The position numbers and the translations under genes were made by a program. A stretch of 64,000 nucleotides of DNA, from assembly GCA_958009085.1 (NCBI GenBank), contig OY253690.1:1-64000 (forward strand), written 5' to 3'. Below, in pieces: positions 41,301 to 62,300 of this stretch; the first letter of the stretch is position 1; the number at the start of each line of letters is the position of its first letter. The notes under the pieces were generated by a model. The model was not told the origin of the DNA. It saw only the letters and a list, made by a program, of their open reading frames with translations, and searched no databases. The DNA comes from Protoeuglena noctilucae. Its lineage: Eukaryota.

Positions 41301-42080
41301 GAGATTGGCTGCCACGCTCATTCCCCTCTCTCTCTCCCTTGTCACTCCCGCAGGTGGCTGTGGATGCTTAGAGGAAATTTCTGCTATGGCTATTGTAACA
41401 AACACGTTCCCCTTTCTCCCCATTCAATCCCGCAGGTGGCTGTGGATGCGCAGAGGGAGCTGCTGTCACTGGCGGCAGACCTGGTGCGTCCGGGGGGGCT
41501 GCTGGTGTATGCGACGTGCAGCATCGAGGCGGGGGAGAACGAGGGGCAAGTGGAGGCGTTCCTGAGAGAGAGGAAGGATTACAGGTGAGGGTGGGAGGGA
41601 GTGGCAGGTGTAGAGGCGTTGTTGAGAGAAAGGAAGGACTACAGGTGAGTAGGGTGGGAAAGTGGGTGGAGGCGTTTTTGAGAGAGAGGAAGGACTACAG
41701 GTGAGGGTTTGCTAGAGTGGCAGGTGTACAGACATGCGTCACGGTGGGGGCCGGCAGCAAGTGGAGCTAGCTGCTAGCGGGAGTGAATGCACAGCCGCAT
41801 CTGAGGCTGCAAACTGCAGAGCACGAGTAGCCATGAGCTTACAAAACGGCATGGTTCTGTCCATGGATGTCAAATGGACAGCCCCCCTGCGCTGACATGA
41901 TCGACGCTCTTCGTCGCACCACCCTCCCCCGCCCGCCCCTGCTCCCCCAGGCTGGAGGGTCCCCGAGAGGGCACGGTCCCCGCGTCCGTGCTGGATGCGC
42001 GGGGCGTGACGATGCAGACGCTGCCGCACGTGCACGGCGTGGACGGGGCGTTTGCGGCCAGGCTGCGACGCGTGCGGTAG
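35352..42080 (+). CDS. rsmB: RsmB/Sun (NOL1/NOP2/Sun) rRNA m5C methyltransferase with a NusB-like domain; transit-peptide-like N-terminus and RGG/WG-rich extension
   Basis: NusB-like GLVNAVARK; SHPAWMVERW; VQDEGAGLVVAMLDPQPGEAVLDMCAAPGGKAT; FDRVLVDAPCTGTG; GGLLVYATCSIE..ENE; TLPHVHGVDGAFAARLRR*. The start at 35352 (MLSRALPG...) is tentative. Confidence 0.88.
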
Positions 42081-42812
42081 GCGCGGGCGGGGGGCTGCCT
42101 GTAGACGGGGTTAGGGGTAGGGGTAGCGGGGGCGTGCGTCAGCGAGGGGCGTCAGCAGGTCTGGGGAGGTGGTGGGGCGAGCGCGGAATAGGGCAAAGGG
42201 CTCGCCCTTTGCGTAGTGGCTGCACCTTTCCGCGTCGCCGCCCTCCGCCTGCGACCTTCCGCGACATGTTGAGAGGATGTGGATGGCAGCAGCGCATTTG
42301 AAGGCAGCTCCTGAAGAACGAACAAAGCTCTGACGCCAGCAAGTGTCTTCCTGTCTCCGTCGCCGGCCGTCGCGGCCACTCCACCGTCCGCGTCTTGCAT
42401 CAGATGCTTAACATAAGCTCTCCGGCGCGGCAGTCTCAGTAGGGAGGGCTGCACAGACGGCTCCTCCGCGCATACTTGGCTGGAGGCCGTTCAAAGGCGA
42501 TCGGGCCGACTTTTCGACGTCTTTACTTGCAAAGGTGAGGGATCCGAGCCGGGACGCGAGCGGGGACGGCGCAGCGGCTCTGAGCATCTGCAGGACCTTC
42601 CCAGCCAGATTTCTGCCTCCCGTGGCGGTGGGGAGCTCTCTTTAGGTGTTTCGCTCCGTCAGGGAACTAGTGTTCGCGCATGTCGGCGCACTGGGAAGCC
42701 GGATCCCTCTGCGCGGGCCCGGAAGGTCAAAACTATGCTCTGCACGGTCCCCGCAGCCGCTGAAGGAGCGCGAGGCCGGCACGCAGTGCGGGGAGGTGTC
42801 AAGACGTGAAAA

Positions 42813-44378
42813 ATGGCCGCCGGGTGAGGCGGGGGGCATAGGGGCGGCACGGGGTGGCAAGCGCAGCGTGCGTGCTTGCGTCATGGCCGCTGCAGGCCCG
42901 CCCAGGGCCTGCTCGGATCTGGTACCGATCCTATTGGCAGACTTGTCTTACGCGATGCGTGTTTACTCATATGACATGTTTCTTTTTGTCACAGGAACAC
43001 GGCCATGCACGTGACTACAGAAGACGAATTGCGGGGGGGCCTGGCAATTGGCCGGCAGAGCTTCAACCTTGGTGGAAACACGTTAACTTTAGAAAACGTG
43101 TTGGCGGTGGTGGCGGGCAGGACGGCGGAGATTTGCAATGGGACATTGCGGGCAAATGGCCAAGTCGGGGAGGGGTACGCCTTACAGGCGCATGGTGGGG
43201 GTCGATTGGTGCTTACGGGGGTGACGATGGAGAGAACAGGGGTGTGGTGCAAGGGTGGGGAAATCATCCTTAGAAATGCAAACGTGGACAAGGCGCCTTA
43301 CTCAGGGTTGCTGTCGGAATGGCGCAACAGCCACATCACTATGATTGGAGGAAGCATTTCCGGCTCGTTGGAGAACGGGGTGCATTGCCTTAAGGGCGGG
43401 CAGGCGACATTGGAGAGCGTGGCAATTTCACAGTGCAAGAAGCACGGGGTGTTTAGCAAAGGCAAGGATGCGGACGGCACGAAGAGCAAGGCAACTATTA
43501 TCCAAGGGAGCATTACGGGTATTCACACTGGGGGGCAAGTACAGGTTCAGATTCCGCCAGCAGGGCATGGCGAGGGCATAGCAATGACCCACTTGCTGAG
43601 TAGCCTTACTCCTGGGTCTTTTTATGACGGAGTGTGCTGCGAGTCGGGTGGAGTTGCAGATGTGAGGGGTGCAAACATAGCCAAAAGCATCCGGAGTGGT
43701 ATTTACTGCAATGGCTCAGGGAGCACAGCAACCATGTATGGAGGAAGCATATTTAACTCTGCCCTTGATGGAGTGACCTGCATGGCTGGTGGGTTTGTGG
43801 AGTTGGTGGGCGTGGCGATCACCAGGCAACAGTCGGGTGTAACGAGCTACCTCCGAGGCAGTAGGGTGATCGTGCGCGCTGGGTCCATTATGGAGTCTAG
43901 GGCTCATGGGGTGCTGTGTCGTGAGGGCGGAGTGGCCGAGGTGCGGGACGTGGAGATTGCCGGCAGCGTTTGCAGTGGCGTGTGCAGCCACGGCTACAGC
44001 ATGAACGGCCACAACAGTACGGTGGTTGTGCAGGGCGGGTCGATTAGAGATTCTAGGAGTAATGGGGTTTTATGCTTTAGTAGCGGGAGGGCGCACGTGC
44101 TGGGCGTGGAGATTGCTGACTGCGTCGGAAACGGCGTATTCACCCATGGCAGGGGCAGCCTGGCCTACGTGCGGCGGGGTAGCATCAGGGGACCCAATAT
44201 GTTTAACGGGGTGGCCTGCGAGAAGGGCGGACAGGCGTTTGTGGAGGGCGTAACCGTTCAGAACTGCACCCGGTACGGTCTTTACTGCAACGGTCTCTCA
44301 CGTCTCGTTGAGAGCACTTTCTTTCAGTGCTACGTGTCCGGTTGCGTAAGGGGACGTTCCAACTACTTCTCATACTGA
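42813..44378 (+). CDS. Right-handed parallel beta-helix (pectin-lyase-like) repeat protein, ~460 aa
   Basis: Repeating ~23/46-aa units such as GGSISGSLENGVHCLKGGQATLESVAI and GGSIRDSRSNGVLCFSSGRAHVLGVEI. An 11-nt first exon (42813-42823) splices in frame at AG 42994 to the ORF ending at 44378. Confidence 0.8.
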
Positions 44379-44918
44379 GGAGGGCAGCTAGGGGGATCCA
44401 TGTGCTGGTTCAGGTAAGTCCCTGCTGCCGTCCCCGCTTGCACCATCTGCGAGGCACGGTTTGGCCACGACAGCTCAGACACGCCAGGCCGCGCCCGTCT
44501 CCGCAGTTGGGCAGTGCAGGGGGGACGGAGGATGTTCAAAGCTGGGAAGGGCACCCCGCATAGATGCTCAGATTTGCGGGCTAGCTGGGGCGGGAGGGGT
44601 AGGGAGGAGGTGGCGAGGGTAGGGGCATGCATGTGTCTTGCGCGTTTGTCTCTGGGAACACGTGAGCAGCAGCATGGGCAGCCAGCATGGGCAGCCTGGC
44701 GTTTGAAGCGCAAGCATGCAGTCGCCACACCGAGGAGAGCAGCAACGAGCTGCATCGCCTGCCACCTGTCCCTGGCAATCGCGGGCGACTTGCTTGTGCG
44801 GGGCTGCGCCTATGTAAGCACACGTCCGAATGTGGATTAAATGGCGTCATGTTCTAATATGAAGCAGCTACTCCTTATTCTTATACATATTGCGAGACGA
44901 AAAGGATAAAAAGTTTAA

Positions 44919-44933
44919 TAACCCTAACCCTAA
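44919..44933 (+). repeat. Short interstitial telomeric repeat TAACCCTAACCCTAA
   Basis: 2.5 units of CCCTAA inside an AT-rich patch at 44850-45040. Confidence 0.7.
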
Positions 44934-45049
44934 TATTACTAGTTAACAACAACATTTTAGTTTATAGAAGTAATATTAGTGTTATTACTAGACATATGGA
45001 TCACGTATTCTTAGTACACTTATGACTATAATAACTACTCCCTTCACTC

Positions 45050-45600
45050 CACCAGCTGGCCACCGACTTGGAACTGTTCTGCGAGATTGCTGTGGCGCTG
45101 CAGGGGCTGGGGGGCGTGGTGCTGACACAGGCGGTCAAGGCACAGGACCTGCACGCCAACTGGGCGAAAGAGAGGAAGGATTACAGGTGAGGGTATGCGA
45201 GAGTGGCAGGTGTAGAGGCGATCGTCACGGTGCGGGTAGCATGCACATGCGCATGTGCATAGAGAGAGCAGACTGCAGGTGAGGGTTTGCGATAGTGGTA
45301 GGTGTACAGCGATGGATCGATGGATGTCACGGCAGCCCCACTGCGCTGACATGATCGACGCTCTCCGTCGCACCACCCTTATGAGCTCACCCGCCCCTGC
45401 TCACTCCCCCAGGCTGGAGGGTCCCCGGGAGGGCACGGTCCCCGCGTCCGTGCTGGATGCGCGGGGCGTGACGATGCAGACGCTGCCGCACGTGCACGGC
45501 GTGGACGGGGCGTTTGCGGCCAGGCTGCGACGCGTGCGGTAGGCGCGGGCGGGCGGCTGCCTGGCGGCAGGGGTAGGGGTAGTGGGGGCGTGCGTCGGCG
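45050..45600 (+). pseudogene. Patchwork duplicate of RsmB 3' exons
   Basis: 45053-45162 resembles exon 40503-40622. 45170-45193 resembles 41570-41592. 45330-45600 copies 41878-42140, with the terminal exon 45413-45542 nearly identical to 41951-42080. Confidence 0.85.
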
Positions 45601-46456
45601 ATGCTTGTTAGCGGGATTGGGGAGGCGGCCGCGTCGATGCATATAGGCGAGCAGCAGACGGCAGCGCGGCACTTGAAGGGGAAGGTCAGCCCTCTCGATC
45701 GCTTCTCTGGTCCTGCTCGTGCACCTGCTCCATGACATCGCACAGCTCCTCCCGCGTGTGGCTCCTCTCCAGTCTCTGATGTCCAGCCGATGCGTGTTAT
45801 GCAGCTCGTCCGCACACCTCGTGTGCTTGCACCGGTACTCCACCCCCGCAGCGCCTTGCAGCGTCCTGCCCCAGGTGGCTCTGAGCCCCGATCTGAGCGT
45901 GGATGGGGAGCGGCTGCCGATGCGCGGGGTGGGAGCGTGCTCTGGTGGTTGTGCTGTCGATCTGCTGCCTGCATGTCGCTGCGGGCGACGCGGAAGGGCG
46001 GCGGGCGAGGCCACGGGCTTGTATACGACACCATCAGCGACTCGGCAGGCGCACCGGGCGCGTCGGATCGCCGTGATGCGGGCGCGGGGCCCAGGGTGTG
46101 TCTGGCGCGGACTGGCGCAGGTGTGCCGGAGCCATGGGTCGTCGCTGCGGTCGCGGAGGAGGGCCGTGGTGGTGGCAGTGATGCGGTAGAGGTCCAGGAG
46201 TGTGTACACGGGCACTGCGCGAGCTGGAGTCGGCGTCGGCTGAGCAAAGCAGGGACGCTGCGGGTGTTTCGGGAGCCGGAGGGGCTGAGCGGGCTTGCTA
46301 GGAACCGGCGGCGACGCGGTAGGTGAGAACGAGGCGCTATGAATGTGTGGCGTCGCAGATGAGCCTAACAGACGCGTGCGGCAGCCCTGGGCACTTTGTG
46401 AAGCACGGTGTCCCGTGTTTGACGCAGCGAGGAGTCGGAAGCGGCCGTCGGTGGCC

Positions 46457-48153
46457 ATGTCGGCGGTAGTGGATACGCAGATGTCATCGGAGGGGGCGAC
46501 CGTCGGTGAGGAGCGCACGGGAGGGCTGCGTTGTTGCGCTAGATGTGCGTGCCTCATTGCGACATCCGGCCACGTCCGCTTGCGCGCGCAGGGTGGGGCG
46601 ACCTGCCCGAGGAGCTGCATCGCGAGATCCTGCGGCTGGTGCCCCTGCACGACGCGACGGCGGCGCGGCGGGTGTCGCGGGAGATGCGCGACGAGGTGGA
46701 CGAGGTTTGGAGGGCGTGGGGCATCCGGGCCACCGCGGAGGACGGGGGGGAGGACATGCGCATTCGCTTCAGCTTTTTGCTCCACAGTGACGAGCTTGAC
46801 AGGGGTCCACTGGCGGTCTACGCGCTCCAGGGGTCCCACGCGCACCACCTGGCGAGCCTGGGGCTGTGGTGGCTGGCCCTGCTGGTGGCGGAAAGGCCGG
46901 ACCTGAACGGCATTCCTTGGAGGAGTGATGCCAACTACGATGTAGAGTCGGCCTATGACGAGGAGTCTGACGACGGATCGGCCTTTGACGAGGAGTCCAA
47001 TTACTACGGGTCGCATGATGGCAAGGACCAATATCCGGACCAGTCACCGCTGATGGTGGCGGTGCGGGCGCGGCGTCCAATGCGGCGCGAGGTGGGCAGC
47101 AGGGTGGAGTGGGCGTACGCGCTGGGGGACGAGGAGGTGGCGCGGGCGGTGCGGGTGGCGGTGGCGATGGGGGCGGACGTCAACCGGCGGCTAAATTACG
47201 CTTGGCCGCTGATGACGTACTGCGCGAGGCGGGGGTGCCTGGGAGCGGTGAAGGCGTGCATGGCAGCGGGGGCAGCAGTCGACGCACGTGGTGACGGTTT
47301 CGGCGACTGGGAGACGGCGCTGGTGCGTGCGGCCCGGGGGGGATACGAGGCGGTGGTGGAGGTGCTGCTGGAGGCGGGCGCGTCGGCCAAGGTCGGGCCT
47401 ATGGGCGAAAATCACACCCTGGCAGTGGTGTGCATGGGTCACCCGACGCCGGGCATCGTGAGGCGGCTGGCAGAGGCAGGGGCGGACGTCAACTCTTGCT
47501 ATGAGCGTGGGACAGCCCTCCTTCAAGCCGCGTATCGTGGCAATGTGGCCGTGATGGCGGTACTGGTGGAGCTGGGGGCCGATGTGGTTGGGACTGACGA
47601 GCTGGGGCGCACTGCGATGTATGGGGCGGGGAACGGGGAGGTGGTGCGGTGGCTGGCTGCGCGTGGGGTGAGCGTCCAGGGCAACGGTCGCGGCCGGTCC
47701 CCACTTTGCGAGGCTTGCGGAAGCGGTCGCGCGGATGCCGTCCGCGCCCTGCTTGAGTTGGGTGCGGAAGTGAGGTTTACAGACAGCGATGGTTGCACGC
47801 CTCTCCATCGTGCGGCGGGGCTCTGGGACGAGCAAGAGGCCGTGGAGGTGTCCCGGCTGCTGTTGGAGGCGGGGGCGGACTTGAATGCCGTGGATGGGGA
47901 CGGCAAGACACCCCTGCACCACATCTATCACGCCGCGTGTGTGGACGTGCTGGTGGACGCCGGGGCAGACCTGGAGGCGCGCGATGGGCAGGGCAGGACG
48001 CCGATCTACACAGCCGCGACTTCTTGGCACGGCAAGCCCGAGGTCGTGCTGCGGCTGGTCGACCGCGGCGCGGATCTGGTCAACACGGGCGGGGAGCCGG
48101 GGCGGGTGATGCGCAAGGTGGAGGAGCTGCGGGCCCAGCGCAGCCGCAGTTAG
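46457..48153 (+). CDS. F-box plus ankyrin-repeat protein
   Basis: F-box-like WGDLPEELHREILRLVP...ARRVSREMR. Ankyrin repeats include TALVRAARGGYEAVVEVLLEAGA, GCTPLHRAA...LLEAGADLN..DGDGKTPLH and GRTPI. A short exon 1 (46457-46505) splices in frame at 46592. Confidence 0.88.
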
Positions 48154-49334
48154 CTGCAGGACCTCTGACCCAGGTGAGGACGGCGGCTGCGGTTTCGGTC
48201 GGTGTCTGTGCGACGCACAAGGGTGAGCTGGCGTGCCGACCTGTCACGCTGAGTCGTGGAGTAGGTGGCAGGTGTGGCAGCACTTGCAACGGCACGTGGC
48301 AATGTGACTGTGGGCGTGCAGGGGGGCCATGGCCGGTATCTGGACCAGCGGCGCAGCTGTGCGTGATGTGCGAAGTGACTTGCAGCCCTGCGTCCCGCAC
48401 TTGCAGCGCTGGGTGGCTGGCTGCTCACGTGGCCCTGCACGCATGATGCACATTGGGCATGGACGTCTCGCATGCAGTGAGCGTTGCTGTCCTGCGTTTG
48501 TGCACCCTTCATCGCATCGACGGCCAAGGGCAGTGTGGGTGCAAGCGGGGCTGGTGCGATGGGCGGGTTCCGGGCATAGTGAGCTTGGTAGTGTGGCGAG
48601 GACGCGGTAGGAATGCAGCGGTAAGATGGCTGGCCAGAGTTTTGGCTGTCGTTGAGCCTCGCGGTTCTCTTTTTTTAATGCTCTGGCACAGCTGCAGGGT
48701 CGATTGTCAGGCGCTGTTCAGAAACGACTGCCGGCGAGCTTCTACATGCAAGCATCGCATACTGAGGGCCTTGCTAAAGCTTAGAGCAGACACCGGTCAC
48801 GTCACGTCGCATCGCGGCTCGGCTCACAAGGTGAGGCCAGCCAGGGTTATGGAGGTCTGCCCCGCGGCTGCCTGTGGTCGGCAAGATGAGATGAGCCGTG
48901 CAGGGGTAACTGTCGCAATATGTCGCGCTGTGCGGGGCCGGGCGGAGGGGGAGCTAGCCTCGGCGGGCCGGGCCGCGCGGGTGATCCAGAGCACGGTATG
49001 AGCTTTGCGTTGACCGCGCTGCCCTGGGACCTCTTGAGCGAACGCGATGCAGCGACAATAGTGACATGACTTGATGCGCTATCGTGGCTGTCGTGCGACC
49101 CTGCGGCACGCCGGAGCGCACGGGAGTGGGGACTTGCGTGCTTGGAGCTATAGCAGTAGGAGGACTGCGCACGTTCGGACCCGGTCCGACCCCGTACCAC
49201 CCGGTCCCGACCTGGCGTTTACACGGGCTTTTCTGTTTTTTTAACAAAAAATTTCCCGAAAAACTACGTCCAACTGCGCGCGACGGATTTTCCCGTCAAA
49301 AACCCTGTAAGAAACAACCCCCGAAACCGCGCGA

Positions 49335-49827
49335 AAACCGTGGAAATATCCCGGCGCGATCCCCGCGCGATCTCCGCACGACTTCTGCGGGACTTCGGCA
49401 CGAGTTCTGCGGGACTTCTGCACGCCGAAACCACGGGAAATACCGTCTTCCGGCCCTCGTCCGACAGCAGCGAGCCCCCGTCCGACAGCAGCGAGCCCTT
49501 GCACGACCCCGGCGGGACTCCGGCGCGACTTCTGCACGACCCCGGCTGGGGGCCCGGGCCCCTCACCGCGCGACCCCCGCGCGACCCCGGCGGGACTTCT
49601 GCGGGACTTCTGCGCGCCGGAACCCCCGGAAACACTGTGTCCCGGCCCTTGTCCGGCAGCAGCCTGCCCTCGTCCGGCAACAGCGGGCCCTTGCACGCCC
49701 CCCGCGCGACCCCCGCGCGACTTCTGCGCGACTTCTGCGGGACCTCTGCGGGACTTCCGCGCGCCGAAACATTCATTCCGGCCCTCGTCCGGCAACAGCG
49801 ACCCCTCGTACCGCAACAGCGAGCCTT
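49335..49827. repeat. Hierarchical repeat array: three ~130-190-bp units, each with GACTTCTGCG(G/C) 11-mers followed by a ~21-bp GCCCTCGTCCG(G/A)CA(G/A)CAGCG doublet
   Basis: Units at about 49366-49510, 49570-49700 and 49703-49827. Confidence 0.85.
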
Positions 49828-50431
49828 CAAATGGCGCTCTGCCCGGCGCAACCATCCGCGTGGTGCCTACGCCCACTCGCGTCAGCCCAGCAATAAAGCA
49901 GCCACTTATCGGCCGCGGCCGCCTCCCATGCCCAGAGCGCCCTCAGGCTCTCCCGCAGCATGGCAGCGTCCGGGAGCGGGTCCTCATCGAGGCTCGCTGT
50001 GGTCCGCCAAGACGAGGGGGTCAGCTTGTGCGTGCACCGGGCGCGGCAGAGGAGGGGGGCCCTCGAGCGGGCCAGCACCCAGCCCAAGCACCAGAAGCCC
50101 CGTCGCCCGCCGAAGAAGGCGACCGCGGCGTCCTCGACCGTCTCGCCGTCTGTCGTGACGAAGAACCACGACCAGGGGTCGAACTCGGGGAAGCGAGGAA
50201 GCTGGAGAAGCCCGGCCTCATCTCGGGCAGCACCGCGGCCGCGGCGTCGGTGAAGACTGGCGCGACGCTCCGGCTCTCCATGAGCTCCTCACTGGGCTGC
50301 ACTGGGGGAGCGGGGGGCTGGGGCGGGGGCGCCGGGGTCGGGGGCGCCTGGGTCGGGGCCGCCTGGCCCGGGGTGGCCGGGGGCCGGCGCCGTAGCACCA
50401 GCCTGCTCAGTCGCTTCGTGATGTCGGGCAT
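49827..50431 (-). pseudogene. Probable frameshifted hypothetical ORF, divergent from the ORF at 50602
   Basis: MPDITKRL...VFTDAAAAVLPEM in one frame, then protein-like LPRFPEFDPWSWFFVTTDGETVEDAAVAFFGGRRGFWCLGWVL...* in another, switching near 50220. Confidence 0.35.
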
Positions 50432-50528
50432 AACTGGAGGGGGGGACTGCGCCAGGGGGGGAGGGCCAGCCCACTGCTTCAGCTTCCGTGAAACGCCAGT
50501 GGAAGGCTCCGGGGCGCGGGCCGCGGAG

Positions 50529-50534
50529 TATAAA
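50529..50534 (+). promoter_or_regulatory. TATAAA box upstream of ORF 50602
   Basis: An isolated TATAAA in GC-rich DNA about 70 nt before the ATG. Confidence 0.5.
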
Positions 50535-50601
50535 CGGCCGTCGCGGCCCCCTCCGCGGCCATTTCCGACAGCAGCTGGCCCCCGCAGGTCCAGTGCCGGC
50601 C

Positions 50602-51351
50602 ATGGAGGAGCTCAAGATCGTCCTCGGGCAGAGCCTGTCGTGCGGGAGGGATCCCGTGGGAGTCCTCATCCCCCAGTGCATGGCGCTGACTCGCAGGCGT
50701 GGAGAGGCCGAGCCGCGCCGCTGCCGCAACGCGCCCCACATCGCCCTCGACGGGGCGGACCCCGCGGCCTCCCTCGCCTGCTACCTTCACGCCGGCCCGG
50801 TGGACAGGACCATCTGCATGGTGGGAATGCAAATGGCGGCGGTCGATCCCGAGGTCGAGTCCGCCGCGGTTGCGATGCCGCTCGCGCTCAACGCGCTGGC
50901 CCTGGAGTTCAACCAGCTCTTCTCGGAGGCCGCGAAGGCCCCCGTGCCCCGTTTCGGCCTCAACGTGGGCGGAGAGCGTGTGCTCGCGGACGGCGTCCAC
51001 GCCGATGGCTTCTCGCCCCTCGAGCTGTACAACGCTGCCCTCGGCGCTGCCCGGCGGCCCCAGACCGACCCGCAGACCGCCGCGCAGTCCCTCCGGTTCT
51101 GCCGGTTCTACTGCCGCTTCGTGCGCTACCTGCACGAGGTATTCCGTTACGCCCGGGAGTATGACATCGACACTGAGGAGGACATCGACGTGAACCTCCA
51201 GGAGCTCCGGATCCGCGGCGAGCAGGAGCATGCCCAGGCGGAGAAGAAGGCCCACGACAGCGACACCGGGGTCACTGAGCGCAACAACCCCGACATGGAC
51301 GTTGACCAGGAGGACGAAGGGTGCCCAGCTACCCAGCCCAGCAGCCCCTAG
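50602..51351 (+). CDS. Hypothetical 249-aa protein with a C-x..C..C-x2-H putative Zn-binding motif and an acidic tail
   Basis: Intronless, with GC-ending codons and a Kozak-like gccATGG. Contains QCMALTRRRG....RCRN...ACYLH. Confidence 0.65.
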   Translation: MEELKIVLGQSLSCGRDPVGVLIPQCMALTRRRGEAEPRRCRNAPHIALDGADPAASLACYLHAGPVDRTICMVGMQMAAVDPEVESAAVAMPLALNALALEFNQLFSEAAKAPVPRFGLNVGGERVLADGVHADGFSPLELYNAALGAARRPQTDPQTAAQSLRFCRFYCRFVRYLHEVFRYAREYDIDTEEDIDVNLQELRIRGEQEHAQAEKKAHDSDTGVTERNNPDMDVDQEDEGCPATQPSSP

Positions 51352-51540
51352 GCCTTCTGAGCTCCCCTTGAAGTGCGCTCTATATCCGCTCCCTGGTACC
51401 CCCCCACTCCGGCCCGACCGTCGACGCCCCTGACCGTCGACGCCCTGGTTCAGGCACTGCGGGGTAGGGTAAGCCACCTGGGTGCTTTGGGTTCCGGTCG
51501 CCACACCGACACCGCTGCATACCCGGCTCCCGGCAAGCTC

Positions 51541-51546
51541 TATAAA
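51541..51546 (+). promoter_or_regulatory. TATAAA box upstream of ORF 51579
   Basis: TATAAA 38 nt before the ATG at 51579. Confidence 0.5.
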
Positions 51547-51578
51547 TGTTCGCCGCGCCCGCCCGCCCCTCCGGGGGC

Positions 51579-51920
51579 ATGAACCACGTCGACCTGGCGG
51601 AGGTGCTCCGCCTCCCCGACTCCTTCCGCAACTCCGGCATCTTCCGCGAGGGCAAGTTCCCGCTACTGGAGCGTCTCGATGCGGCGCGGGACTTCCGGGC
51701 CATCTTCGGGCTGCTCTCGGAGCACCAGGACAACACCGACGCCTTCACCTTCCATCTCCATACCACGCGGGACCTCATCCGCTGGAACATCGTCCTGGAG
51801 GGGCACATGTGGGTCGAGAATGGCCTCCGCGTGCCGCGGGACTTCGCCATGTGCTACTTCGCGCTCACCAGGGGGTCTGCGCCTGGGGCCATCATCCGCA
51901 TCGCCGAGGTCGCCGAGTGA
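51579..51920 (+). CDS. Hypothetical 113-aa protein
   Basis: Intronless ORF MNHVDLAEVLRLP...AEVAE* with strongly GC-ending codons and a globular-looking composition. Confidence 0.6.
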   Translation: MNHVDLAEVLRLPDSFRNSGIFREGKFPLLERLDAARDFRAIFGLLSEHQDNTDAFTFHLHTTRDLIRWNIVLEGHMWVENGLRVPRDFAMCYFALTRGSAPGAIIRIAEVAE

Positions 51921-52470
51921 GCCGAGCACGGCCGTCGTGAGGCACGTGGGGATCGTGTTGCCCAGCGCGCGCCAGACGCGCGTGGCGTTCAGCCCTCCCC
52001 ACCGCAGCAGCTGCGGTGGGAAGCCCTGAAGTGCCTCTGCGTCGACGCGCGAGAGAACGTAACCCCCGCCGCCCTCGAGGGGCACGTAGGCAAAGGACCG
52101 CTTGTCCTTGGAGTTGGGGCGGTATTGGGTGCGGATGGTGCGGCAGAGCTGCTTCTCGGGCCGCAGGCCAGGCTGCCCCAGCAGCTCGGCGAGATTTGGC
52201 CCGGCGCGCGCCGGGGGAGGCTCCCAGTTGAATTCCGCGTCCCATGAACCCACGATAAAGAGCCTGCGGCGTCCCTGGGGGATGCCGTAGTCCGCGCAGT
52301 CCAGGACGTGCCAGCACACCTTGTAGCCCGCGTCGCGGTACGCCTGGATCGACGTCTTCAGGCCTCGCGAGCCCGCCTCAGCAGAGAAGCAGCAGACGGC
52401 CGCGAACACGAGGGCTGCGAGCGCGAGGGCGGCCGAATGGCCGCAAAGCACTCTCCCTCTACCATTCATG
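51663..52470 (-). pseudogene. C-terminal half of a C5 cytosine DNA methyltransferase (Dcm-like) fused to a signal-peptide-like N-terminus
   Basis: GY....VLDCADYGIPQGRRRLFIVG (motif VIII), LSRVDAEALQGFP (motif IX) and ALGNTIP (motif X). Motifs I, IV and VI (FxGxG, PC, ENV) are absent. Confidence 0.75.
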
Positions 52471-53318
52471 ACCCCGCACGTTTCCACGACCTCATTCCGC
52501 ACTACGCGGCGTGCATGGTCTGGTTATCGCAAATCTATGAGCGCCGCCTAGCGAAGAAGCTATGGATCCTAGCGCTGCAACAAGCATCCCTGCATCTCTG
52601 CCGCGGGGAAGGCTTTCGGCGCGCTGTTGCGAACCCGCGCGCCACACGACTGGCACTCGAGTCGGGCGCCCCAGTCGTCGACTCAGTCGACGCTGTCCCC
52701 CGCTTCGCGAGTCCTACACGAGTGCTGGAACGGTCCAGTCACCCATGGGTGGCATAGGCGCCATCTGGATGCGCTGCCATTCCACGGCGCATGAGGCGGG
52801 TTGAGGAGCCTGAAGCGGGTTGAAAGGCCATGGAGACCGCGCGCCGACCGAAGACAGCCCGCGCTCGGGACACTCGCGATGACGAGAAGGCAGCGCGGGC
52901 CAGTGCGTCGGGGACGGCGCGGTGAGGGCAGCGATGTTGCCTAGTGGTGCAACGGAGATTCAGTTTATCTCACGCATACGTGCGCGAACGCGTCTCGTGT
53001 CGACGCTCTGCGCATCGTTTGGATTGCAGTCGCGACCCCATCCTGCCGACCAACACGCCCATCCCGTCGCACGTCGCCCACCACGCGTCGGGAGCGATGA
53101 CCAAGCCCCTCCGGAAGCCGTGGTTTCCCGCCGTGCCTTTGCTCGAGCTTCACCAGCGAATCAAGCGACAAGACGCGAAGTCTGAGCAGGACGAGCCCGA
53201 TGGTGCCAAGCCGCAAGACCAAAAGTCTGCAAATGCCACGTCGCTCCCGGGGGGGACCACCGAGGATGCCAGCCGGCCTGCAGAGTGGGCGCCCCTTTCG
53301 CGCGCCGCTGCGGTAATC

Positions 53319-56300
53319 TCAGAGGAGCGCAGCCAGCAGCATGGGCGGCACCAGGAGCACGCTGCCCGTCGCCGCCATGAAGGCGCTGGACTTCTTCGTC
53401 GGCGCGGGCGTGGACGTGGGCGTGGACGACGACGATGGCGTCGGGGTGCTGGGGCCCGGGGTGGAGGCGGGGACGGGGACCGTCGCGACAGACGCCGCCA
53501 CGGACGGGACCTCGAGCTGGTACAGGGCCGAGGTGGCGTCGGACGCCGTGGCGATGAGGGCCGACTGGATGGAGGTGGCCAGCGCCGAGCCGCCCCCGAC
53601 CGCCGTCACGAGCTTCTGGGCTGCTGCGTTGGTGGCAGCAGCCACGGCCACGTTGAGGTTCACCGCCACCTGCGGGTACCGACATAAGAATCAATGACTT
53701 CAGCTCAACTGACAGCAGCATGCAACTGCCCTCAGCAACAGCACTCACGTCCAGGAGGGCACGGCGCGATGTGGAGGCCGTGACCACAACCGACGAGGCC
53801 GGCACGCCCAGCTTGGAAGCCACGGTGCTCTGGATCTGGGCCTCGATGGCGGCCAGCTGGACGCTCGAGGGCTGGGTCTTGAATGCGAGCGTGACTGTAA
53901 ACTTGACCCGCGGCGTGCCCGAGGCCATGGGTGCGGGGTTTGGAAAGAGGTCGTTGATGACGATGTTCATCGAGAAGACGTCCGAGGTCTGGTAGCCCGA
54001 GCCCGCCGTCTTAGGACTGCACGATAGCACCAGCGTCGTGGCTGCGCCGGTGACGCTGGGCATAGCCGATAGGTACACGGCCGTGGGGGACGTGGTGACC
54101 GCGATGTCGGGCGTGGTGGCCGTGGAGGCCGCCAGGACCGAGCCGGTGTAGGCGGGGGAGTCCTTGTCGTTGGTCAGCGTGCAGTCGACCGTGACGGGCT
54201 GGTTGAGGGCCTCCAGGTTGACGAGCTCGCCCGCGGCATACCGCGTCTGCTCGATGGCCTGGATGGACGTGACCTGGGAGCCTGCCATGAGCGCGTTGCC
54301 CTTGGAGTCAGTGGCGATGGCCTTGGTGCCCGTCACAAACACCACCTTCTGGTTCCGCACGTAAACCTCAAACTCGATCGCCTCGGTCGTGTAGCCGCCC
54401 GCGGACGACGAGGGCATGCACGTGTAGGTCACCGTCTTGTCGGCGCCAATGGTCAGCGAGGTCGGGATGGTAACGCTGACGGCCGTGCCGCCCACCACGT
54501 TGCTCGTCGTGGACATGGAGAGAGTGGACGTGACGTTGGGCAGCGTGGCCGTGTCACTCGACGTGCACGTCACCGAGACAGTGGCGGTCGGGGGGACCGT
54601 CGTGTAGAGCTTGACGAGGGCACCGGACGTGCTGCTCTGGAGCTCGAACACGGCCGGGGTGAGCGAGGCCGAGCCCGAGGTCAGGAGAGTGCCGCTGGCC
54701 ACCGTAGACCCGCTGGCGGTCGTGGCAGAGGAGCCGGCCACGGCAACGAGGGCGCGGGCAAGGACCACGACGTCGAACTTGACGCTCTCATTACCCTTGT
54801 AGGGCGACGAGGCGCACACCACTGAGCACGTGTAGGTAACGGTCGTGTTCTTGCTCACAGCCGCGGGGTTGGGCAGCGACAGGGCTGTGCCAGCGTTCAG
54901 GAGGCCCGAGACAGTGACGTCCGTCATCACGGCCGTGTTGTTCGACGCGCAGTAGACGTCCACGGCCACCTCATTCTTGGACGAGTCCAGGGCGGGCGTC
55001 TTGGTCCTGAGCGTGACCACTTCGCTGCGGCCCGCGTACATGACGAGCAGCGGCGCCAGAGGCGCAGTCGTCGAGTACCCGATGTTGGTGCCGGCCGAGA
55101 TGGACAAGAGCGTTGAGCTGTTCAGCGCAGAAGAGCCTGCCACGGCCATCAGGCCGTAGTAGTACACGTACACGTCAAACTTGACCGAGTCGGTCGGGTC
55201 CAGGCCGCCAGCAGCCGCCGTCGGGGCGCACGTGTAGGTCACCGTCGTGTCGCCGGTCTCGGTGCCCATGGGCGTGGGGATCTGGATGTTGGCGGCCATG
55301 GTGCCCGAGACGGACAGGCCCACGATGTTGGCCAGCACAGTCGTGGCACTGCTCGTGCAGCTGAACGTGACCGCGGCCGTGGCCGCGGCATTCAGGCTGA
55401 TGGTCGCGACGGCGCCCGCGGTCGTCGACTGGCCGTACATGACGGCTGGCGTGATGGCAAGCGAGCCACCGCCTGAGATGTCCGTGCCAGTCGCCAGCGC
55501 CAGGTTCGTGTCCGCGCGGACGGCGGACGAGCCGGCCTTGATGACGGGCTTCAGGGCCTTAACCTTAATATCGAAGAAGACGGTGCCCGTCACAGTCGTC
55601 TTGCCCCCAGCAGAGATCGTGCGGGCGAGGGCGGTCGTAGACGCAGGCGTAATGGCCTGAGTGGTGCCAGACATAGTCGCCGCAGGTGTTGGGGCAAACG
55701 TGGGCGCGGCCACGGAGCTGGGGGTGCAAGTGTAGGTCACTGTGGTGTCCGCAGCAATGGACGATGCCACCGGGATCGTGATGCCCACGACGGTGGCGGC
55801 CGAGAGGGACACGTTGTCGATGTCCGCGAGCACGGTCGAGTTGCTCGACTTGCACGAGTAGGTCGTGGGCGTCTGGGGGGCCGCCGTGGCTTGCAGGGCC
55901 ACGATGGTGCTCGAGGCCGCCGCGCCCTCGAACACGACAGGGGTGCGCGAGGCGATGCCGGCGCCGAGGATCGTGGCGCCGGCAGTCAGGGTCGTGGTCC
56001 CGTCGGCAGCCGTGCCCGCAGCCGAGCCAGCCACGACCTGGGCCGTGGGGTCGGACACGAACACGTCGAAAGTGACGCTCACGGTGGTGGCGAAGCCGCC
56101 AGCCGTGGCGCTGGGCGCGCACGTGAAGGTGACGAGCGTGCCTGCCAAGACGACCGCGGGGGTGGGGAGGACCAGGTTGACGGCGGTGGTCGTCGAGACG
56201 GAGGTGGCCGCCACGTCGCCTAGGATGGCCTTGTCGCTTGACATGCACATGTAGCTGACGGCAGTCGTGGGCGCCACGTTGACCTTGAGCGCAACCGTGG

Positions 56301-59300
56301 AGCCCGCGGCGTAGGTGACGCCCGCGTAGAGCTGCACCGTCTTGGCCAGGGACCCGCCGCCGCTGATCTTGGTGGACGTGGAGAGCATGGTGTAACCGTC
56401 TGCGGCCGTGAGTGCCGTGCTGGGGTAAACATCGACCGTGCGGGGCAGGACCGTGACGTCGAACGTGAACGAGTCGGCCGTGGTGAGCCCGCCCGCGTTG
56501 GCCGTCGGGGCGCACGTGAAGGTGACCGTGGTGGCTGTCGAGACGTCGCCCGCAGCGCCAAAGGTGAGGCCAACGGCGATGGTGGATGACACGCTGGCCG
56601 TCACGCCGGCGAGGATGGTGCTGTTGGAGGACGCGCACTTATAGCTAACAGCGGCCGAGGGCGTGCCGTTGGCCACCAGCTGGACGAGGGCGCCGGCAGC
56701 GGGGGTCACGGTTGTCACGACTGAGGGCGTCTTGGCCGCGTTGCCCGAGGCCAGGGCCGTGCCCTGCGCCAGCATGGCACCGGTCGCCGTCATCGCGGCC
56801 GTGCCGGCCTGGGCCGAGACGGCCAGGGGCACGACCGTCACGTCAAAGGTGAACGTGTCGGAGGTCGTCACGCCGCCCGCGGAGGCCGTGGGCACACACG
56901 TGTAGGTCACCGTCGTAGTCTTGTCAATCTGGCCGCTCTGGGGCAGGCCCACCGGGACGGCGGTGGTGCTGTTGACCTGGACCAAGGGCACGCTGTCGAG
57001 CACGGACGTGTTGGAGGACATGCACGAGTAGGTGATGGTCGCCGTCGGCGTGGCGTTGGCCTGCAGCGCCACCACGTTGGAGATGCTGTTTGCCACCGCC
57101 AGCTCGACGATCTGCGGGGTGGCCGAAGCCTTGCCCGACACCAGCATGGTGCTGGTCGTCATGGCCGTCTTGCCGTCGGCGGCCGTCTGGGCCGTACCGC
57201 TGTAGGCCGCGACCACGATCGCCTTGACGTGGACCGTGAAGGCCACGCTCTCGGACGTCGTTAGGCCACCCGCGCTGGTCTTGGGGGTGCACGTGACGAT
57301 CACGTCCGTGTCGGCCTTCACGGAGCCTGGGGTCGGCAGCGTGATGGCCGCCTTGGTCGACGACAGCGTCACGTCCGAGACGGTCCCGATCACGCTCGAG
57401 TTGTTGCTCGTGCAGGCGTACCTCACGGTGGCGGTCGTCCCATTTGTCGCGGGCGTTGTGTTGGCAAGCAGCTCAACGGTCGTCCCCAGGCCGGTGGACT
57501 GACTCTCATACAGGACGAAAGCCTTGCCGGAGGGCAGGGCGGTGTCCGCAGCCAGGGTCGTGCCGTCGCTGAGGGTCTGCGACGAGGCGGCCGCCGCCTG
57601 GACGTTGATGGCCACCACATTGACCCAGAACATGACTGAGTCGGTTGTCGTAAGGTTGCCGAATGCCGCGGTGGGAGCGCACGTGTAGCTGACCTGCACG
57701 TTGGCCGTGCCCATGTTCGCAGGGGCAGGGAGCGTGATGGCGTCGGCAGCCGTGTCGTTAGTGATGGACACGGAGGCGATGTCCGCCATGATGTTGGAGT
57801 TGCTGGACGTGCACTTGACTGTGCCCGTCGCGCCCGGAGCAACATTCTGTTGCAGCTTGACCTTGCTGCTGTCAGAACCGGCACCCTCAAAGACCTGCAC
57901 CGCCAGCGCGGCGTTGTACGTGCTGCTCGTCAGGTCGGTGGACGTGCTGCCAAAAGCTGTCCCGTTGCCGTTCAGAACTGTGGCAAAGGCGGGCACCGGC
58001 GTCAGCTCGGCGTGCATGACGTATACGTTGAACTTGACCGTGTAGCGAGATGGGACCGAGCCAGTGAAGACGAACCCACCGGCGCTGGTCACAGGCGAGC
58101 ATGTGTACGTGACAGTGGTGTCGGCCGAGATGCCCGTCACAGGCGGGATCGTGAAGGTCGTCACGCTCGTGTCCGTGATGTTGAAGGCCGCCACAGCGGG
58201 GGCGATCGTGGAGTTGCTCGAGCTGCAGGAGAAGGACACGGTGCCAGCAGGAGCGTAGTTAAGCTGAAGGCCGATCTGACCGGTCGACGCTGACCCTTCG
58301 TACAGCACGGGCGTCATGGACGTGGAGCCAGCTGTCGAGTAGCCGACAGAGGTGCCGGAGGCGAACAAGGTGCCGTCCGACCAGCGAGTGAGGGTGGACG
58401 CTTGGACCAGCGCCGAGACGGAGCGCGGCATGATCGTCAGCTGGAAGCTCACTGTCTGGCCCGCCGACACGCCCGTTGGCGCAGGGGACGACGCGACTGT
58501 GCATGTGACCGTCATCGTCACGGCCGACGTGATGGCAGCGGGCGCGCTGAAGGCGATGGGGGCCGAGGCAACGGCGCTGACCGCCACCGCGGCGGGGCTG
58601 GCGAGGGCCGTCGTCGTCCCGCTCGTGCAGATGATAGTGGCCGTCGCCGAGTTGCCGAATGAGAGTGTGGCGATGGCGCCGGCGGCTGTGTCTTCGCCCT
58701 CAAAGATGCGGGGCGTGAGGCACGAGGAGGTGTCAAGGACGGTGCCCACCGTGATCTGGGCCGTCGGCATCGTGCTGCGGTAGGCCGCCGAGCCCGCAAT
58801 CGCCTGCATCTGGGGAGTCACGTCAAGGATGAAGGCCGTCTTGATGCTGGGCCAGCCGTTCGTGGAATCGTTGGTCGTACACTTGACGTAGAACCTGGTC
58901 TGCATTCCCACGTTCTGGATCTCGATAGTCGTGGCCTGGGCCAAGGTGCCCTGCGCAGCGATGTCGTTGGCGGTCGACCCGCTCGCGTTGGTGGTCGTGG
59001 CAAAGGTGAACGTGTCCGAGGTAGTCTCGGCCACCGTGAATGCGCTCGAGGCCTCCATGGAGAAAGCCGAGTCAATGTACGCCGTGCAAGACACGACGCT
59101 GCCACCCGTCAGGGACGTGCTGGCCGACCCGTTCTGGAACTTGAGCGTCACAGAGTCGCCCCCTTCCTGGGAAACGTTGCCAAAGTCTGTGCTCATCGTG
59201 GGGTTGTTGGGGGCCCAGACGGACGTGGTGTTGCCGCTGACCTTCAGGAGGACGATGTCGCCGTCCGCCACAGACGGGTAGGCCGTGCCGAGAGTCAGGT

Positions 59301-62300
59301 TCTGCGACGTCGTGGACCCGGAGGTGCCGAACGACTTGGTGTAGTCGGTCGAGGTGGCGGAATTGGGGAGGTTGATGGTGTTGCCGCTCGTGCATGAGAT
59401 GCTGATGGATGCCCCTGCGTTTGCGCCGTTGAGCTTGACGGCGAACAGGGAGCCCATGGTCGGCGTCAGGTACTCCTTGTCGACAATCTTGACCGTGCTG
59501 GGGACGATCGTCCCCGAACTGAGGGAGCTACCGTTGGTCAGGGACGTGCTGGAGCCAGCCACGACGAGGATCTGCATGGGCTGGATCACGATGCTGACCG
59601 AGAAGCCGTCCGAGGTCGTCAGGTGGTTGGCCGCTGTCATGACCTTGCACGTCAGCGTGACCGTCTTCGAGGTCGTGATGGAGCTCGGGGTGTTGAGGGT
59701 CACGTCGACCGGAGTCGTGGTCGTCACGGAAGCCACTGTGGGGGTCGCGCTGAAGTCGCTCGTCCCCGACTCCGTGCAGGTCAGTGCGTTGGCGCCGCCC
59801 GAGTTGCCGTTCAGCTGCACCTGGAGGACCGAGCCGCCCGCATCGGCCTGGCCCTCGACCACGACGACCTGGCCGAGGGAGGTGCTGCCGATGGTCGACA
59901 CGATGGCCGTGTTTGCGCCATATGCCGTCAGGTTGCCAGTGCTGTCGACAGACTTGTAGGCGGCCGACTGGGCGTACACGATGAAGCCCAGCGGCTCGAG
60001 CGTGAGGTTGAGCTGGAAGCCGTCAGACACTGTCAGGTGGTTGCCACTGGTGTTGACTGCGCATGTCAGGGTGATACTGATAGGGAAGCTCAGGTCTGCC
60101 ACCGTCTTCATATCCATGTTCACCGGGGTCGTGTCGGTGACGTTTGCAACAGTGGGCACGATGTTGCTGGTGAAGTTGGAGACAGTGGCCGTTGTGCACG
60201 CGAGAGCGTTGGTACCTCCTGACGCACCGTTTAGCGAGACCTTGATCGTGTTGCCCGGAGTGTCTGCCTGGCCCTCGAGCAGGTACAGCGTCGTGTTTGA
60301 TGTCCCGCTGATGGCGGCGGTGATGGCCGTGGCGGTGCGGAACGTGGTCAGGACGTTGGTCGACGCGACGCCGCTGATGGCGCCCGACTGCGCCGTCACG
60401 ATGAAGCCCAGCGGCTGCAGGACCACGTCCAGGCTGAAGCCGTCGCTCGTCGTCAGGTGGTTGCCTGTCGCGGCCACCGTGCACGTCACCGTGATGGTCT
60501 TGGCCGTGGAGAGGTCGGCGACCGTGTGAAAGTTGACGGCCACGTTGGTCGTGGTCGACACCGGAATAACAGAAGGGACCAGACTGTTGGAGAAGTCGGA
60601 CGCGGTGGCCGTCGTGCACAACATCTGGTTGGTGCCGCCCGAGTTGCCGTTCAGCTGCACCTGGACGGTGCCACCCACGAAGGCAGCCGTCACTCCACCA
60701 AGCGGATTGGAGAGTGCAGACACCAGACTCGTCACGCTGGTCGCCCCGTTTGTCGAGGTGATCGCGAACACTACTTTCGTGGACGCGGCCGCTGATGTAG
60801 GGTATGCAATCGTCAGCGTATCGTTCGCAGCAAAAGTGCCACCGATGTAGACCACATTGACGGCCTGCACTCCTGTAGCAGGATCTAGGGCCACATTGCC
60901 CGATTTCGCCGTCTCCGTGCCCGACGAGGTCACCGTGTAGGCTGGGAGGGCCGTGTTGACTGCGGCCGCCGTGATGGTGAACGCATTCCCCGTGCTGGCC
61001 GTCGCTGTACCGCCCAGCGTCGTGGTCAGCGCGGCGGCGACGGCTGCTGCCACTGCGGAACCGTCCATGCTTGGATTAGATATATTATTCGTGTACTCTA
61101 TGGTGTAGAGGGTGGGGGTTCCAGTGGCCGTGCTCTTCACAGTGACGGTGACGTAATCATTAAGCGATAAGTAGTCAGTGAAGGTAAAGGGGCCAGTACC
61201 CGTCACCGTCAGAGTCGAAGAGTTGTTGTTGGTGACTGCAAACGAGACGCTCAGGCCCGTGCCCAACGTGATGGTGAGGACGCCGCTGGTGGCAGACGCC
61301 GACCCTCCGCTGCCCAGGGGGGAGCTCAGCGCGTTCAGAAGCCCCGTCGTCACGTTAGCCACTGTCGTCCCGTCGACAGAGTTGACAGTGTACGTCGTCC
61401 TAACTGACACACTATAGTCAGTTACGAACTCGATGGTGTCAGACGCCGCAAACGTGCCGCTGAGCGCGATGGCGTCGACCTGGGACACGCCGCTGCTGTT
61501 GGGCACCAGGGTAACATTGCCCACAGCTGCACTGGAGCCGGTGCCAACTCGGGCAAAAAAGACTGCGTAGCCTCCCGTATAGGACGTCGACCCCCCAATT
61601 TCCTTCCCTGCCGCGGTGGCGGTGAGCACGATGACGTTATCGGTGGCGATTGTGGCGCCAGCCAGCGGAGATGCGAGCGCAGACTTCACACCCGTGGCCA
61701 CGTCGGCAAGCGTCAGCCCGTCTGTGCTGTTGGCCGTGTACGTGACCGTCGTCTTGGCGGTGGTCGTAACGACCTCCACGGCCACAGTATCCGTCGCAAC
61801 GAAAGTGCCGCTGAGGGCCACCTGGTCCTGCTGGAATGCCGTGGGACTCGCCGCGACAACCGTTTGCTTTGTACCAGCGGCACTCGACCCGCTCCCGACC
61901 TGGGTAACCGTCAGCGTGGTCGTAAACGAGGAGTTGGCCGCCACAGCCGTCAGCAACACTGCGCCGGCCGCGGCATCCGCATCGGCCTGCCCCTCGAGCA
62001 GGTACACGGTGTCGTTGCTCGACCCGCCCTTCACCGCCGTCAGGGCCGTGGCGGAGCCGAACGGGACGAGCACATTGGTCGACGCCACGCTCTTGATGGC
62101 GCCCGACTGGGCCGTGACGATGAAGCCCAGTGGCTGGGCCACTAGGTTGAAGCTGAAGCCGTCGCTGGTCGAAAGGTGGTTGGCGGCAGTATTGACAGTG
62201 CAAGTGACCGTCACCGTGGCCGCCGTATCGATGTCTGCAACCGTCTTGAGATCCACGGCAACCTGTGTCGTATCCGTCACAGCAGCCACAGTGGGGACCG

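Follow-up and report, generated by a model that had tools for sequence, protein, structure and literature searches.

The first 64,000 nucleotides of contig OY253690.1 of Protoeuglena noctilucae (GenBank assembly GCA_958009085.1; hereafter the window) come from a marine eukaryote, have a GC content of ~65% and contain, at ~49152-52350, an island that occurs once in the window, between a gene for an F-box/ankyrin protein and a large repeat-rich open reading frame (ORF). The island comprises a repeat module, three orphan genes (ORF-L, ORF249 and ORF113) and the C-terminal part of a gene for a Dcm-type C5 DNA methyltransferase. Its unusual point is that a hypervariable, mosaic cassette stands beside invariant flanks. 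We interpret it as an incomplete and decayed copy of a small cassette, present in few copies and foreign in origin (most likely viral, from the giant-virus gene pool), which would occupy at least two places in the genomes of the species; the probability of this interpretation is put at about one half. The evidence comes from a truncated methyltransferase gene with full-length counterparts elsewhere, the linkage of the cassette genes, their variability and the position of the enzyme in two trees. An earlier annotation of the same DNA, made by a model from the letters alone (hereafter the sequence-only reading), had described a virus- or transposon-like cassette at this place.

A truncated methyltransferase gene and its full-length relatives

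The island ends in what the sequence-only reading had taken for a Dcm fragment of bacterial or viral style, and the profile searches agreed with this. The fragment matched PF00145 with an E value of 1.4e-11 and 44.9 bits (cut-off 22) over profile positions 121-163 of 324, and TIGR00675 with an E value of 1.9e-12, which is under the cut-off of that model; it also aligned to residues 115-172 of M.HaeIII and, weakly, to residues 281-314. Motifs VIII (QxRxR) and X (GNxxP) are present in it as QGRRRLFIVG and GNTIP, respectively. Motif IV (PCQ, with the catalytic cysteine) and motif VI (ENV) were not found in the window copy, and motif I (FxGxG, AdoMet binding) was found neither in it nor in the three minus-strand frames of the 900 nt upstream. 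A search of the three minus-strand frames of 51800-53300 likewise gave neither motif I nor motif IV upstream. The positions of the motifs were taken from the alignments. Since motifs I-VI are missing, the fragment cannot be catalytic; the window copy is a gene fragment and not an enzyme, and cannot methylate DNA.

A search for longer relatives returned P0002, a protein of 362 aa that is 93% identical to the window fragment over 97% of the latter, the fragment corresponding to P0002 residues ~136-285. P0002 carries DLFCGIGSF, GPPCQAFS, VVENV, QGRRRLFIVG and GNTIP, and PF00145, matched at 184 bits, was the sole domain found in it. Five full-length enzymes, 98-100% identical, make up its 90% cluster, on contigs of 2.1, 2.8, 21, 32 and 529 kb, and the truncated form is represented by three sequences, on contigs of 3.5, 61 and 292 kb, which have the same junction protein. 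The two classes are separated by five fixed residue differences in the part that they share. The alignment to the full-length enzyme places the right end of the island at ~52346-52358, and the DNA beyond the break point is unique DNA downstream of the large neighbouring gene (Table 1).

The other cassette genes accompany the full-length enzyme. A C-terminal tail antisense to ORF113 was present in all five full-length enzymes, and therefore ORF113 adjoins the enzyme in the full-length copies. Further, ORF249 variants were also found on the 529-, 32- and 21-kb contigs of the full-length enzyme. The cassette genes thus occur together on at least three other contigs, and longer copies, which the sequence-only reading had proposed to look for, do exist.

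The conserved end of the methyltransferase domain lies only a few bases from the ORF113 stop codon, at 51915-51920, and in all eight copies the enzyme frame then runs without a stop for 84 further codons. In the window this read-through tail is open to 51663, with a GC content at third codon positions (GC3) of 0.65, the GC3 of the fragment being 0.87. The tail is the antisense of ORF113 and is not coding in that frame.

Table 1. Coordinates of the island features and of the host genes of the window (positions within the 64,000 nucleotides; strand given where it applies)
Feature	Position	Strand	Description
Cyclic-nucleotide-binding kinase (cNMP-kinase), host gene	8961-12637		split into exons
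RsmB/NOL1-like methyltransferase, host gene	38754-41585		split into exons
F-box/ankyrin gene, 536 aa, intronless	46543-48150	+	directly left of the island
Left end of the repeated unit	49152-49338		short run of CCGGTCC(C)GACC-like words; 49%-GC T/A tract at ~49225-49300
Composite non-coding repeat array	49339-49830		11-nt and 21-nt units in ~3 higher-order modules of 136-192 nt
ORF-L, orphan gene	50431 to 49827	-	frame change at the G-run 50187-50190
Divergent intergenic region	50432-50601		TATAAA at 50529-50534, 73 nt upstream of the ORF249 ATG
ORF249, intact orphan gene	50602-51351	+	GC at codon positions 1/2/3 0.72/0.45/0.90
Intergenic region	51352-51578		16-nt tandem pair at 51413-51444; TATAAA at 51541-51546, 38 nt upstream of the ORF113 ATG
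ORF113, intact orphan gene, convergent with the methyltransferase	51579-51920	+	GC at codon positions 1/2/3 0.65/0.41/0.92
Dcm-type C5 DNA methyltransferase, C-terminal ~60%	52346 to 51915	-	motif VIII QGRRRLFIVG, target-recognition region, motifs IX-X (GNTIP)
Break point	52347-52358		similarity to the full-length enzyme stops, between P0002 residues ~132 and 136
Large neighbouring ORF, >3,300 codons, single open frame	53164-63999	-	GC3 0.85

Variability and mosaicism of the cassette

Eight sequencing runs contain the window stretch; they belong to two studies, which sampled the organism itself and marine metagenomes. The flank proteins were near-invariant across 7-13 contigs: none of 457 positions varied on 13 contigs, and a single one of 536 did so in a further comparison. 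In contrast, ORF249 was represented by 12 distinct sequences on 13 contigs, with 16 of its 249 positions variable and a 7-residue deletion at the end of some copies. At the DNA level, the version of 50653-52194 in the metagenome run X1 carried 26 substitutions relative to the window, together with a 21-nt and a 10-nt deletion, which in other copies lie at 51323 and 51453, respectively, while the flank DNA in the same run showed 0 differences over 1116 + 816 nt.

Three pairs of ORF249 sites (62/66 with 113/116, 113/116 with 179/186, and 8 with 179/186) were found in all four combinations, and therefore the variants have recombined. Further, haplotypes of ORF249 and ORF113 are common to the truncated and full-length classes, and the methyltransferase part keeps its five fixed differences. 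Dispersed copies that undergo gene conversion would be expected to show shared haplotypes beside fixed methyltransferase differences; alternatively, the pattern could come from alleles that recombine.

Ancestry of the methyltransferase

The best solved relatives of P0002 were M.HhaI (E 3.8e-36), to which the full-length form is nearest, and M.HaeIII (E 5.5e-27), followed by DNMT2 (E 3.8e-15) and DNMT1 (E ~2e-12); by these similarities the enzyme is classed as a single-domain Dcm of prokaryote or virus type. Phage records reached only ~33% identity to P0002, all 1489 matching records being below 60%, and the single JGI metagenome scan yielded nothing better than L002, a relative at 29%. The database relatives numbered 2557, with P0044 (50%) as the closest, followed by proteins of 264-527 aa at 39-45%; above 50% identity only the cluster of P0002 itself and P0044 were found. 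These closest relatives, at 43-50% identity, are environmental proteins from outside IMG/VR. P0044 has a similar odd C-terminal tail, which suggests that it may come from a GC-rich source; a likeness of this tail to the antisense of ORF113 was considered and dropped as too speculative.

Phylogenies of the methyltransferase, of the kind that the sequence-only reading had in view, were computed with two programs. A profile scan of IMG/VR gave 591 related stretches, the best 80 of which were used; 78 of these gave an ORF for the tree and 2 failed the motif filter. The trees took in no named eukaryotic DNA methyltransferase (DNMT) families. In the FastTree phylogeny (197 rows), P0002 paired with P0044 (support 100), the pair stood in a 26-row clade (97), and this in turn in a 60-row clade (94) in which giant-virus contigs were represented but no protein from a megabase contig. 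In the IQ-TREE phylogeny of 79 hand-selected rows, P0002, its 15-row clade (SH-aLRT 98) and 18 IMG/VR loci formed a 45-row clade (99), and all five proteins from contigs of 1.7-4.9 Mb, which were taken as bacterial chromosomes from their size, fell on the other side of the tree (99). Four of the six IMG/VR loci checked carried genes typical of giant viruses, namely VLTF3, an A32-like ATPase and a primase (L005), a capsid protein of nucleocytoplasmic large DNA viruses (NCLDV) and VLTF3 (L009), RNA polymerase Rpb1 (L008), and an mRNA capping methyltransferase (L007); no such genes were found in L003 and L006. In both trees, as far as these sequences can place it, the enzyme groups with giant-virus and eukaryotic orphan enzymes, apart from those of bacterial chromosomes.

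Companion genes

Where the sequence-only reading counted three or four packed intronless ORFs, four genes were confirmed, one of which, ORF-L, is on the minus strand and frameshifted. The exact window sequences of ORF249 and ORF113 are present in a public protein collection. ORF249 has a Cys/His-rich N-terminus and an acidic C-terminal tail, and its frame was open in all 12 variants on the 13 contigs. Its cluster representative is a 440-aa read-through form, and the long forms of 433-443 aa are read-through calls which show that the DNA of ~49960-50600 is kept in those copies too. ORF113 forms a cluster of nine variants with 96-100% identity.

Relatives of the companion genes were not detected in any of the collections searched. 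ORF249 had no relative beyond its own cluster among 1.84 billion cluster representatives; the sole other HMMER match (P0161, E 2e-4), to an RTX/Ig-repeat protein, was regarded as fortuitous. The orphan genes matched nothing in PHROGs or NCBIfam, and ORF113 and ORF-L had no family match in Pfam either. In Protein Atlas, ORF113 gave weak phage-cluster matches only (0.90, below the recognition level), and the C-terminal half of ORF-L gave no usable match. AlphaFold models of ORF249 and ORF113 were unusable, with a mean predicted local distance difference test (pLDDT) score of 36.5 and 35.7, respectively. A tblastn search with four orphan pieces against 82 retrieved loci (1.12 Mb) reached a best E value of 0.88, and IMG/VR scans with ORF249, ORF113, the methyltransferase fragment and P0002 as queries returned only L001, at 39% over 70 residues.

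The N-terminal part of ORF-L is rich in Pro and its C-terminal part in Trp. The gene changes frame at the G-run at 50187-50190, and the two minus-strand frames to the left and right of this run have a GC3 of 0.87-0.95. Read-through proteins from the 61-kb and 529-kb contigs (P0027 and P0030) imply one extra G at this run, which would make ORF-L one continuous frame of ~200 aa, and the state of the window recurs in P0023, P0026 and P0028. The frame difference may be a homopolymer assembly error, because some long contigs show other single-base frame differences, such as that of P0167 in ORF113. In P0167, the truncated enzyme of the 292-kb contig, the tail enters another minus-strand frame within the ORF113 region, that is, a single-base indel relative to the window; this is either a real lesion of ORF113 or a homopolymer assembly error.

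Left end, repeat array and promoters

The left boundary at ~49152 is the point where the contig of another copy diverges: a metagenome contig of 1190 nt in run X3 matches 49152-49607, and its sequence further left is unlike that of the window. In addition, a variant contig with small insertions over ~49165-49258 was found in runs X5, X1 and X2, X5 being the run of the isolate. The unlike left flank of the X3 contig and the isolate's variant contigs of the left end indicate further copies of the left module.

The AT-rich tract with which the sequence-only reading opened the cassette is present but modest, the GC content of 49200-49299 being 49% vs. 59-81% in the adjacent 100-nt bins. The repeat array that follows it is real and composite, with 13 copies of an 11-nt-phased unit of the GCGGGACTTCT / CCCCGCGCGAC type and six copies of a 21-nt-phased unit of the CCCTCGTCCGGCAACAGCGAG type; a seventh copy of the latter, with a 62% match, lies at 50552. 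No strong codon periodicity was found in the array.

The cassette genes have no introns, are spaced by 170-230 nt and include two preceded by their own TATAAA, as had been noticed from the sequence, each on the same strand as the plus-strand ATG that it precedes. TATAAA occurs 27 times in the 64 kb vs. 4.2 expected, and beyond 45 kb only at 50529 and 51541. Unlike the cassette genes, the neighbouring cNMP-kinase and RsmB/NOL1-like genes are exon-split. Intron content and gene packing bear out the earlier description of the cassette as unlike the host genes; base composition does not, as GC3 is host-like.

Origin of the cassette

Several findings weigh against the foreign-cassette interpretation and are considered together here. 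For hallmark genes, the 49 ORFs outside the cassette within the window (6 + 43) were scanned, and capsid, pPolB, integrase or recombinase, reverse transcriptase and transposase genes were not found among them. Terminal inverted repeats (TIRs) were not found either, the best inverted pair in 48900-52700 being internal (36 nt, 78%). The cassette is absent from IMG/VR. In the trees, the immediate clade of P0002 (15-26 rows) consists of environmental proteins, at least one of them apparently eukaryotic, and giant-virus enzymes are also included on the other side of the IQ-TREE phylogeny. The apparently eukaryotic protein, P0068, has a 17-residue in-frame insertion that interrupts the catalytic PCQ motif and resembles a GTATGT...AG intron left unspliced; this intron, deduced from the protein sequence, suggests that the set may be encoded in eukaryotic nuclei. 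The GC3 of the cassette genes is 0.87-0.92 vs. 0.81-0.89 in host genes (0.81 in the F-box/ankyrin gene and 0.85 in the large neighbour), and the related giant-virus loci have 30-47% GC; the cassette DNA is therefore long resident or host-adapted, and its host-like codon composition argues against a recent arrival. Between two variants of ORF249, dN/dS was 0.46 (7 synonymous and 10 non-synonymous changes), which is weak evidence of constraint, and ORF113 showed 0 synonymous and 2 non-synonymous changes between two variants; the input to these counts was 22 tabulated differences of the 26 counted for that contig. Finally, no variant contig is listed for 50653-51317 in the isolate run X5, and the isolate strain may have one copy only.

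The gene status of the orphan ORFs is better backed by codon-position composition and open frames than by dN/dS, and ORF249, ORF113 and ORF-L are treated here as element-specific genes. The name virus- or transposon-like given by the sequence-only reading is partly supported: the enzyme groups with giant-virus enzymes in two trees, but no hallmark gene or TIR was found in the window.

Many of these points would suit a resident, lineage-specific cluster of host genes, whose enzyme was laterally acquired long ago and domesticated, the window holding a paralogue truncated through segmental duplication and deletion. Such a history agrees with the host-like codons, the low copy number and the mobility or capsid genes not found in the window, as well as with the nearest clade of the enzyme, which holds the apparently intron-bearing gene and forms of ~450 aa. 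These ~450-aa relatives share conserved C-terminal extensions, and together with P0068 they suggest a eukaryotic, possibly domesticated, enzyme branch. It also agrees with the wide occurrence of orphan DNMTs in eukaryotes (PMC12344493, in the part available). However, the cassette genes, which lack introns, lie close together and in two cases follow a TATA box, are unlike their host neighbours, the variability is extreme in comparison with the flanks, the three companion genes have no detected relatives, and giant-virus genomes populate the wider clade of the enzyme. A resident host cluster is thus considered rather unlikely, and the foreign cassette is preferred.

Number of loci

Five proteins encoded in the flanks, four on the left (F-box/ankyrin, beta-helix and two small ORFs) and one small ORF on the right, were found on 3-13 contigs, and the longest contig of each cluster was that of 292 kb, never that of 529 kb. 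The 529-kb contig is without the left-flank genes of the window, and therefore the cassette family probably has at least two loci; if the cassette lies at the end of the 529-kb contig, the right-flank check rests on one small ORF. More than one locus per genome is what we infer for the species. This full-length copy in other surroundings speaks against single-copy syntenic orthologues, which the sequence-only reading had named as grounds for refuting its proposal. Contig depths relative to the flanks were ~1.2-2x for the cassette and ~3-4x for the left module; they are a hint of extra copies only and were not used as evidence, because such depths are not copy numbers. The copy number of the cassette looks low.

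An improbable alternative is a single locus with a deletion polymorphism, at which the full-length and truncated forms are alleles of a diverse recombining population and a second locus does not exist. The haplotypes of ORF249 and ORF113 common to both classes, and the single version of 50653-51317 in the isolate run, are in its favor. It is opposed by the 529-kb contig, from which there is no record of any of the four left-flank proteins or of the ORF on the right, by another copy of the left module with a different left flank, and by flanks that are invariant around an interior that is ~2% different, which simple allelism does not explain. A 3.7-kb contig with ~89% similarity to 52827-53108 was weighed as a possible "empty site" allele and rejected; it is more likely a paralogue, because the large neighbouring gene is multi-copy.

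The left junction (48118-49233) was bridged by 0-difference contigs in two of four runs (X1 and X5) and the right junction (52293-53108) in three of four (X1, X2 and X5), and these runs span both studies, the isolate (X5) and the marine metagenomes. Because identical contigs bridge both junctions, the island is no assembly artefact. A chimeric assembly, or bacterial or viral contaminant DNA joined to host sequence, might be imagined from the prokaryote-like enzyme and the shortness of several family-bearing contigs, but besides these junctions the composition, which is that of the host, and the same junction protein on three contigs leave it a negligible probability.

Proposed history and implications

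Under the foreign-cassette interpretation, the complete unit would consist of the repeat module, ORF-L, ORF249, ORF113 and the 362-aa C5 methyltransferase, complete in its catalytic motifs. The enzymes of viruses and of restriction-modification systems suggest by analogy that the full-length enzyme may methylate a short target within the DNA of the element itself. The window copy would have lost the first ~135 residues of the enzyme, and with them motifs I and VI and the catalytic Cys of motif IV, through a deletion or because the insertion was incomplete. ORF-L appears frameshifted in this copy, and the intact ORF249 and ORF113 may still be expressed. Copies would exchange sequence by recombination or gene conversion, which would make the cassette far more variable than the adjoining host DNA.

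A more far-reaching proposal, which we hold as tentative, is that this marine lineage has a family of integrating virus-like elements of its own, so far undescribed, one end of which is represented by the cassette. The repeat module would then be a terminus, and the full-length copies on the 529-, 32- and 21-kb contigs would be complete or active elements that are present in some strains and not in others. The sequence-only reading had likewise suggested one end of an undescribed element family, which is possible, if unproven. If such a family exists, ORF-L, ORF249 and ORF113 would be fast-evolving arms-race genes, which would explain both their hypervariability and the lack of relatives, and the methyltransferase would mark the DNA of the element.

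Fragments of this kind show how foreign DNA, notably DNA methyltransferases, enters protist genomes and decays there. The cassette, which occurs in intact and broken forms within natural marine populations, is a convenient natural test case for the use of virus-type methyltransferases by hosts, for gene conversion that homogenises dispersed copies, and for orphan genes that are parts of an unrecognised element. At the window locus itself it is a relic without enzymatic capacity, of a kind already described.

Neighbourhood of the island

Besides the genes listed in Table 1, the host genes of the window include an exon-split GTPase gene and a gene for a beta-helix protein. The repeat region of the F-box/ankyrin gene (47500-48200) draws many contigs with joints and loose ends, which indicates that the gene belongs to a large family of paralogues. 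The large neighbouring ORF is made of Thr/Ser/Ala-rich repeats, each of roughly 100 residues; two sampled pieces of it (1000-1333 aa) had no match in Pfam, and many similar contigs suggest that it may be multi-copy. Lower-GC blocks (48-57%) lie at 22000-32000 and 37000-45000 and contain 23 of the 27 TATAAA matches. The interval 36001-37000 has a strong G-rich strand bias (GC skew 0.61) and purine-rich tandem units of 31-36 nt. The search for tRNA genes in the window was negative, and 44000-56000 matched no Rfam family.

Comparison with known systems

Integrated polinton-like viruses and virophages of protists are described, in the sections of PMC10120064 at hand, as 15-30 kb long, with a major capsid protein, pPolB or a primase-helicase, an integrase and often TIRs, and a figure legend there names a DNA methyltransferase among the annotated genes of polinton-like viruses. 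As in these sections, the cassette has small intronless genes, a methyltransferase, strain variation and fragmentary assemblies; unlike the viruses described there, it showed no capsid, polymerase, integrase or TIRs in the window, and its ORFs had no Pfam match to capsid, pPolB or primase-helicase.

The Dcm enzymes of giant viruses (IMG/VR loci L004-L013) are 36-38% identical to the cassette enzyme over the whole domain and share the 45-row clade with it. These enzymes of IMG/VR adjoin genes for capsid, VLTF3, A32-like ATPase and RNA polymerase; unlike the cassette, their loci have 30-47% GC and none of the three companion genes. A hallmark cluster of Nucleocytoviricota was not found in the 64-kb window, which otherwise holds host genes. 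The window fails the tests of gene content and termini for polinton-like viruses and that of hallmark-gene clustering for giant-virus regions; in phylogeny, the enzyme stands in a well-supported clade with giant-virus enzymes, and its immediate clade is one of environmental proteins, at least one of them apparently eukaryotic.

With the bacterial type II modification methylases M.HhaI and M.HaeIII, the full-length form shares the order of the motifs (for background on DNMT motifs, see the portion of PMC9998398 available). It differs from them in that no restriction-enzyme partner was identified and that the cassette lies in a eukaryotic chromosome with host-like codons.

The closest parallel is offered by the lineage-specific "orphan" DNMTs of eukaryotes, which, according to the available part of PMC12344493, are widespread and prone to lateral acquisition, some being located in endogenous giant-virus regions or transposons. 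Unlike the orphan DNMTs covered in that part, the cassette enzyme forms a small unit with a repeat module and three orphan genes, and its window copy is truncated and inactive, with no viral region around it in the 64 kb. Like them, it has a single PF00145 domain and no eukaryotic accessory domains, is lineage-restricted and nearer to M.HhaI and M.HaeIII than to DNMT1 and DNMT2, and is associated with virus-related sequences in the tree. The case therefore fits a kind already described, that of the orphan DNMT of foreign origin.

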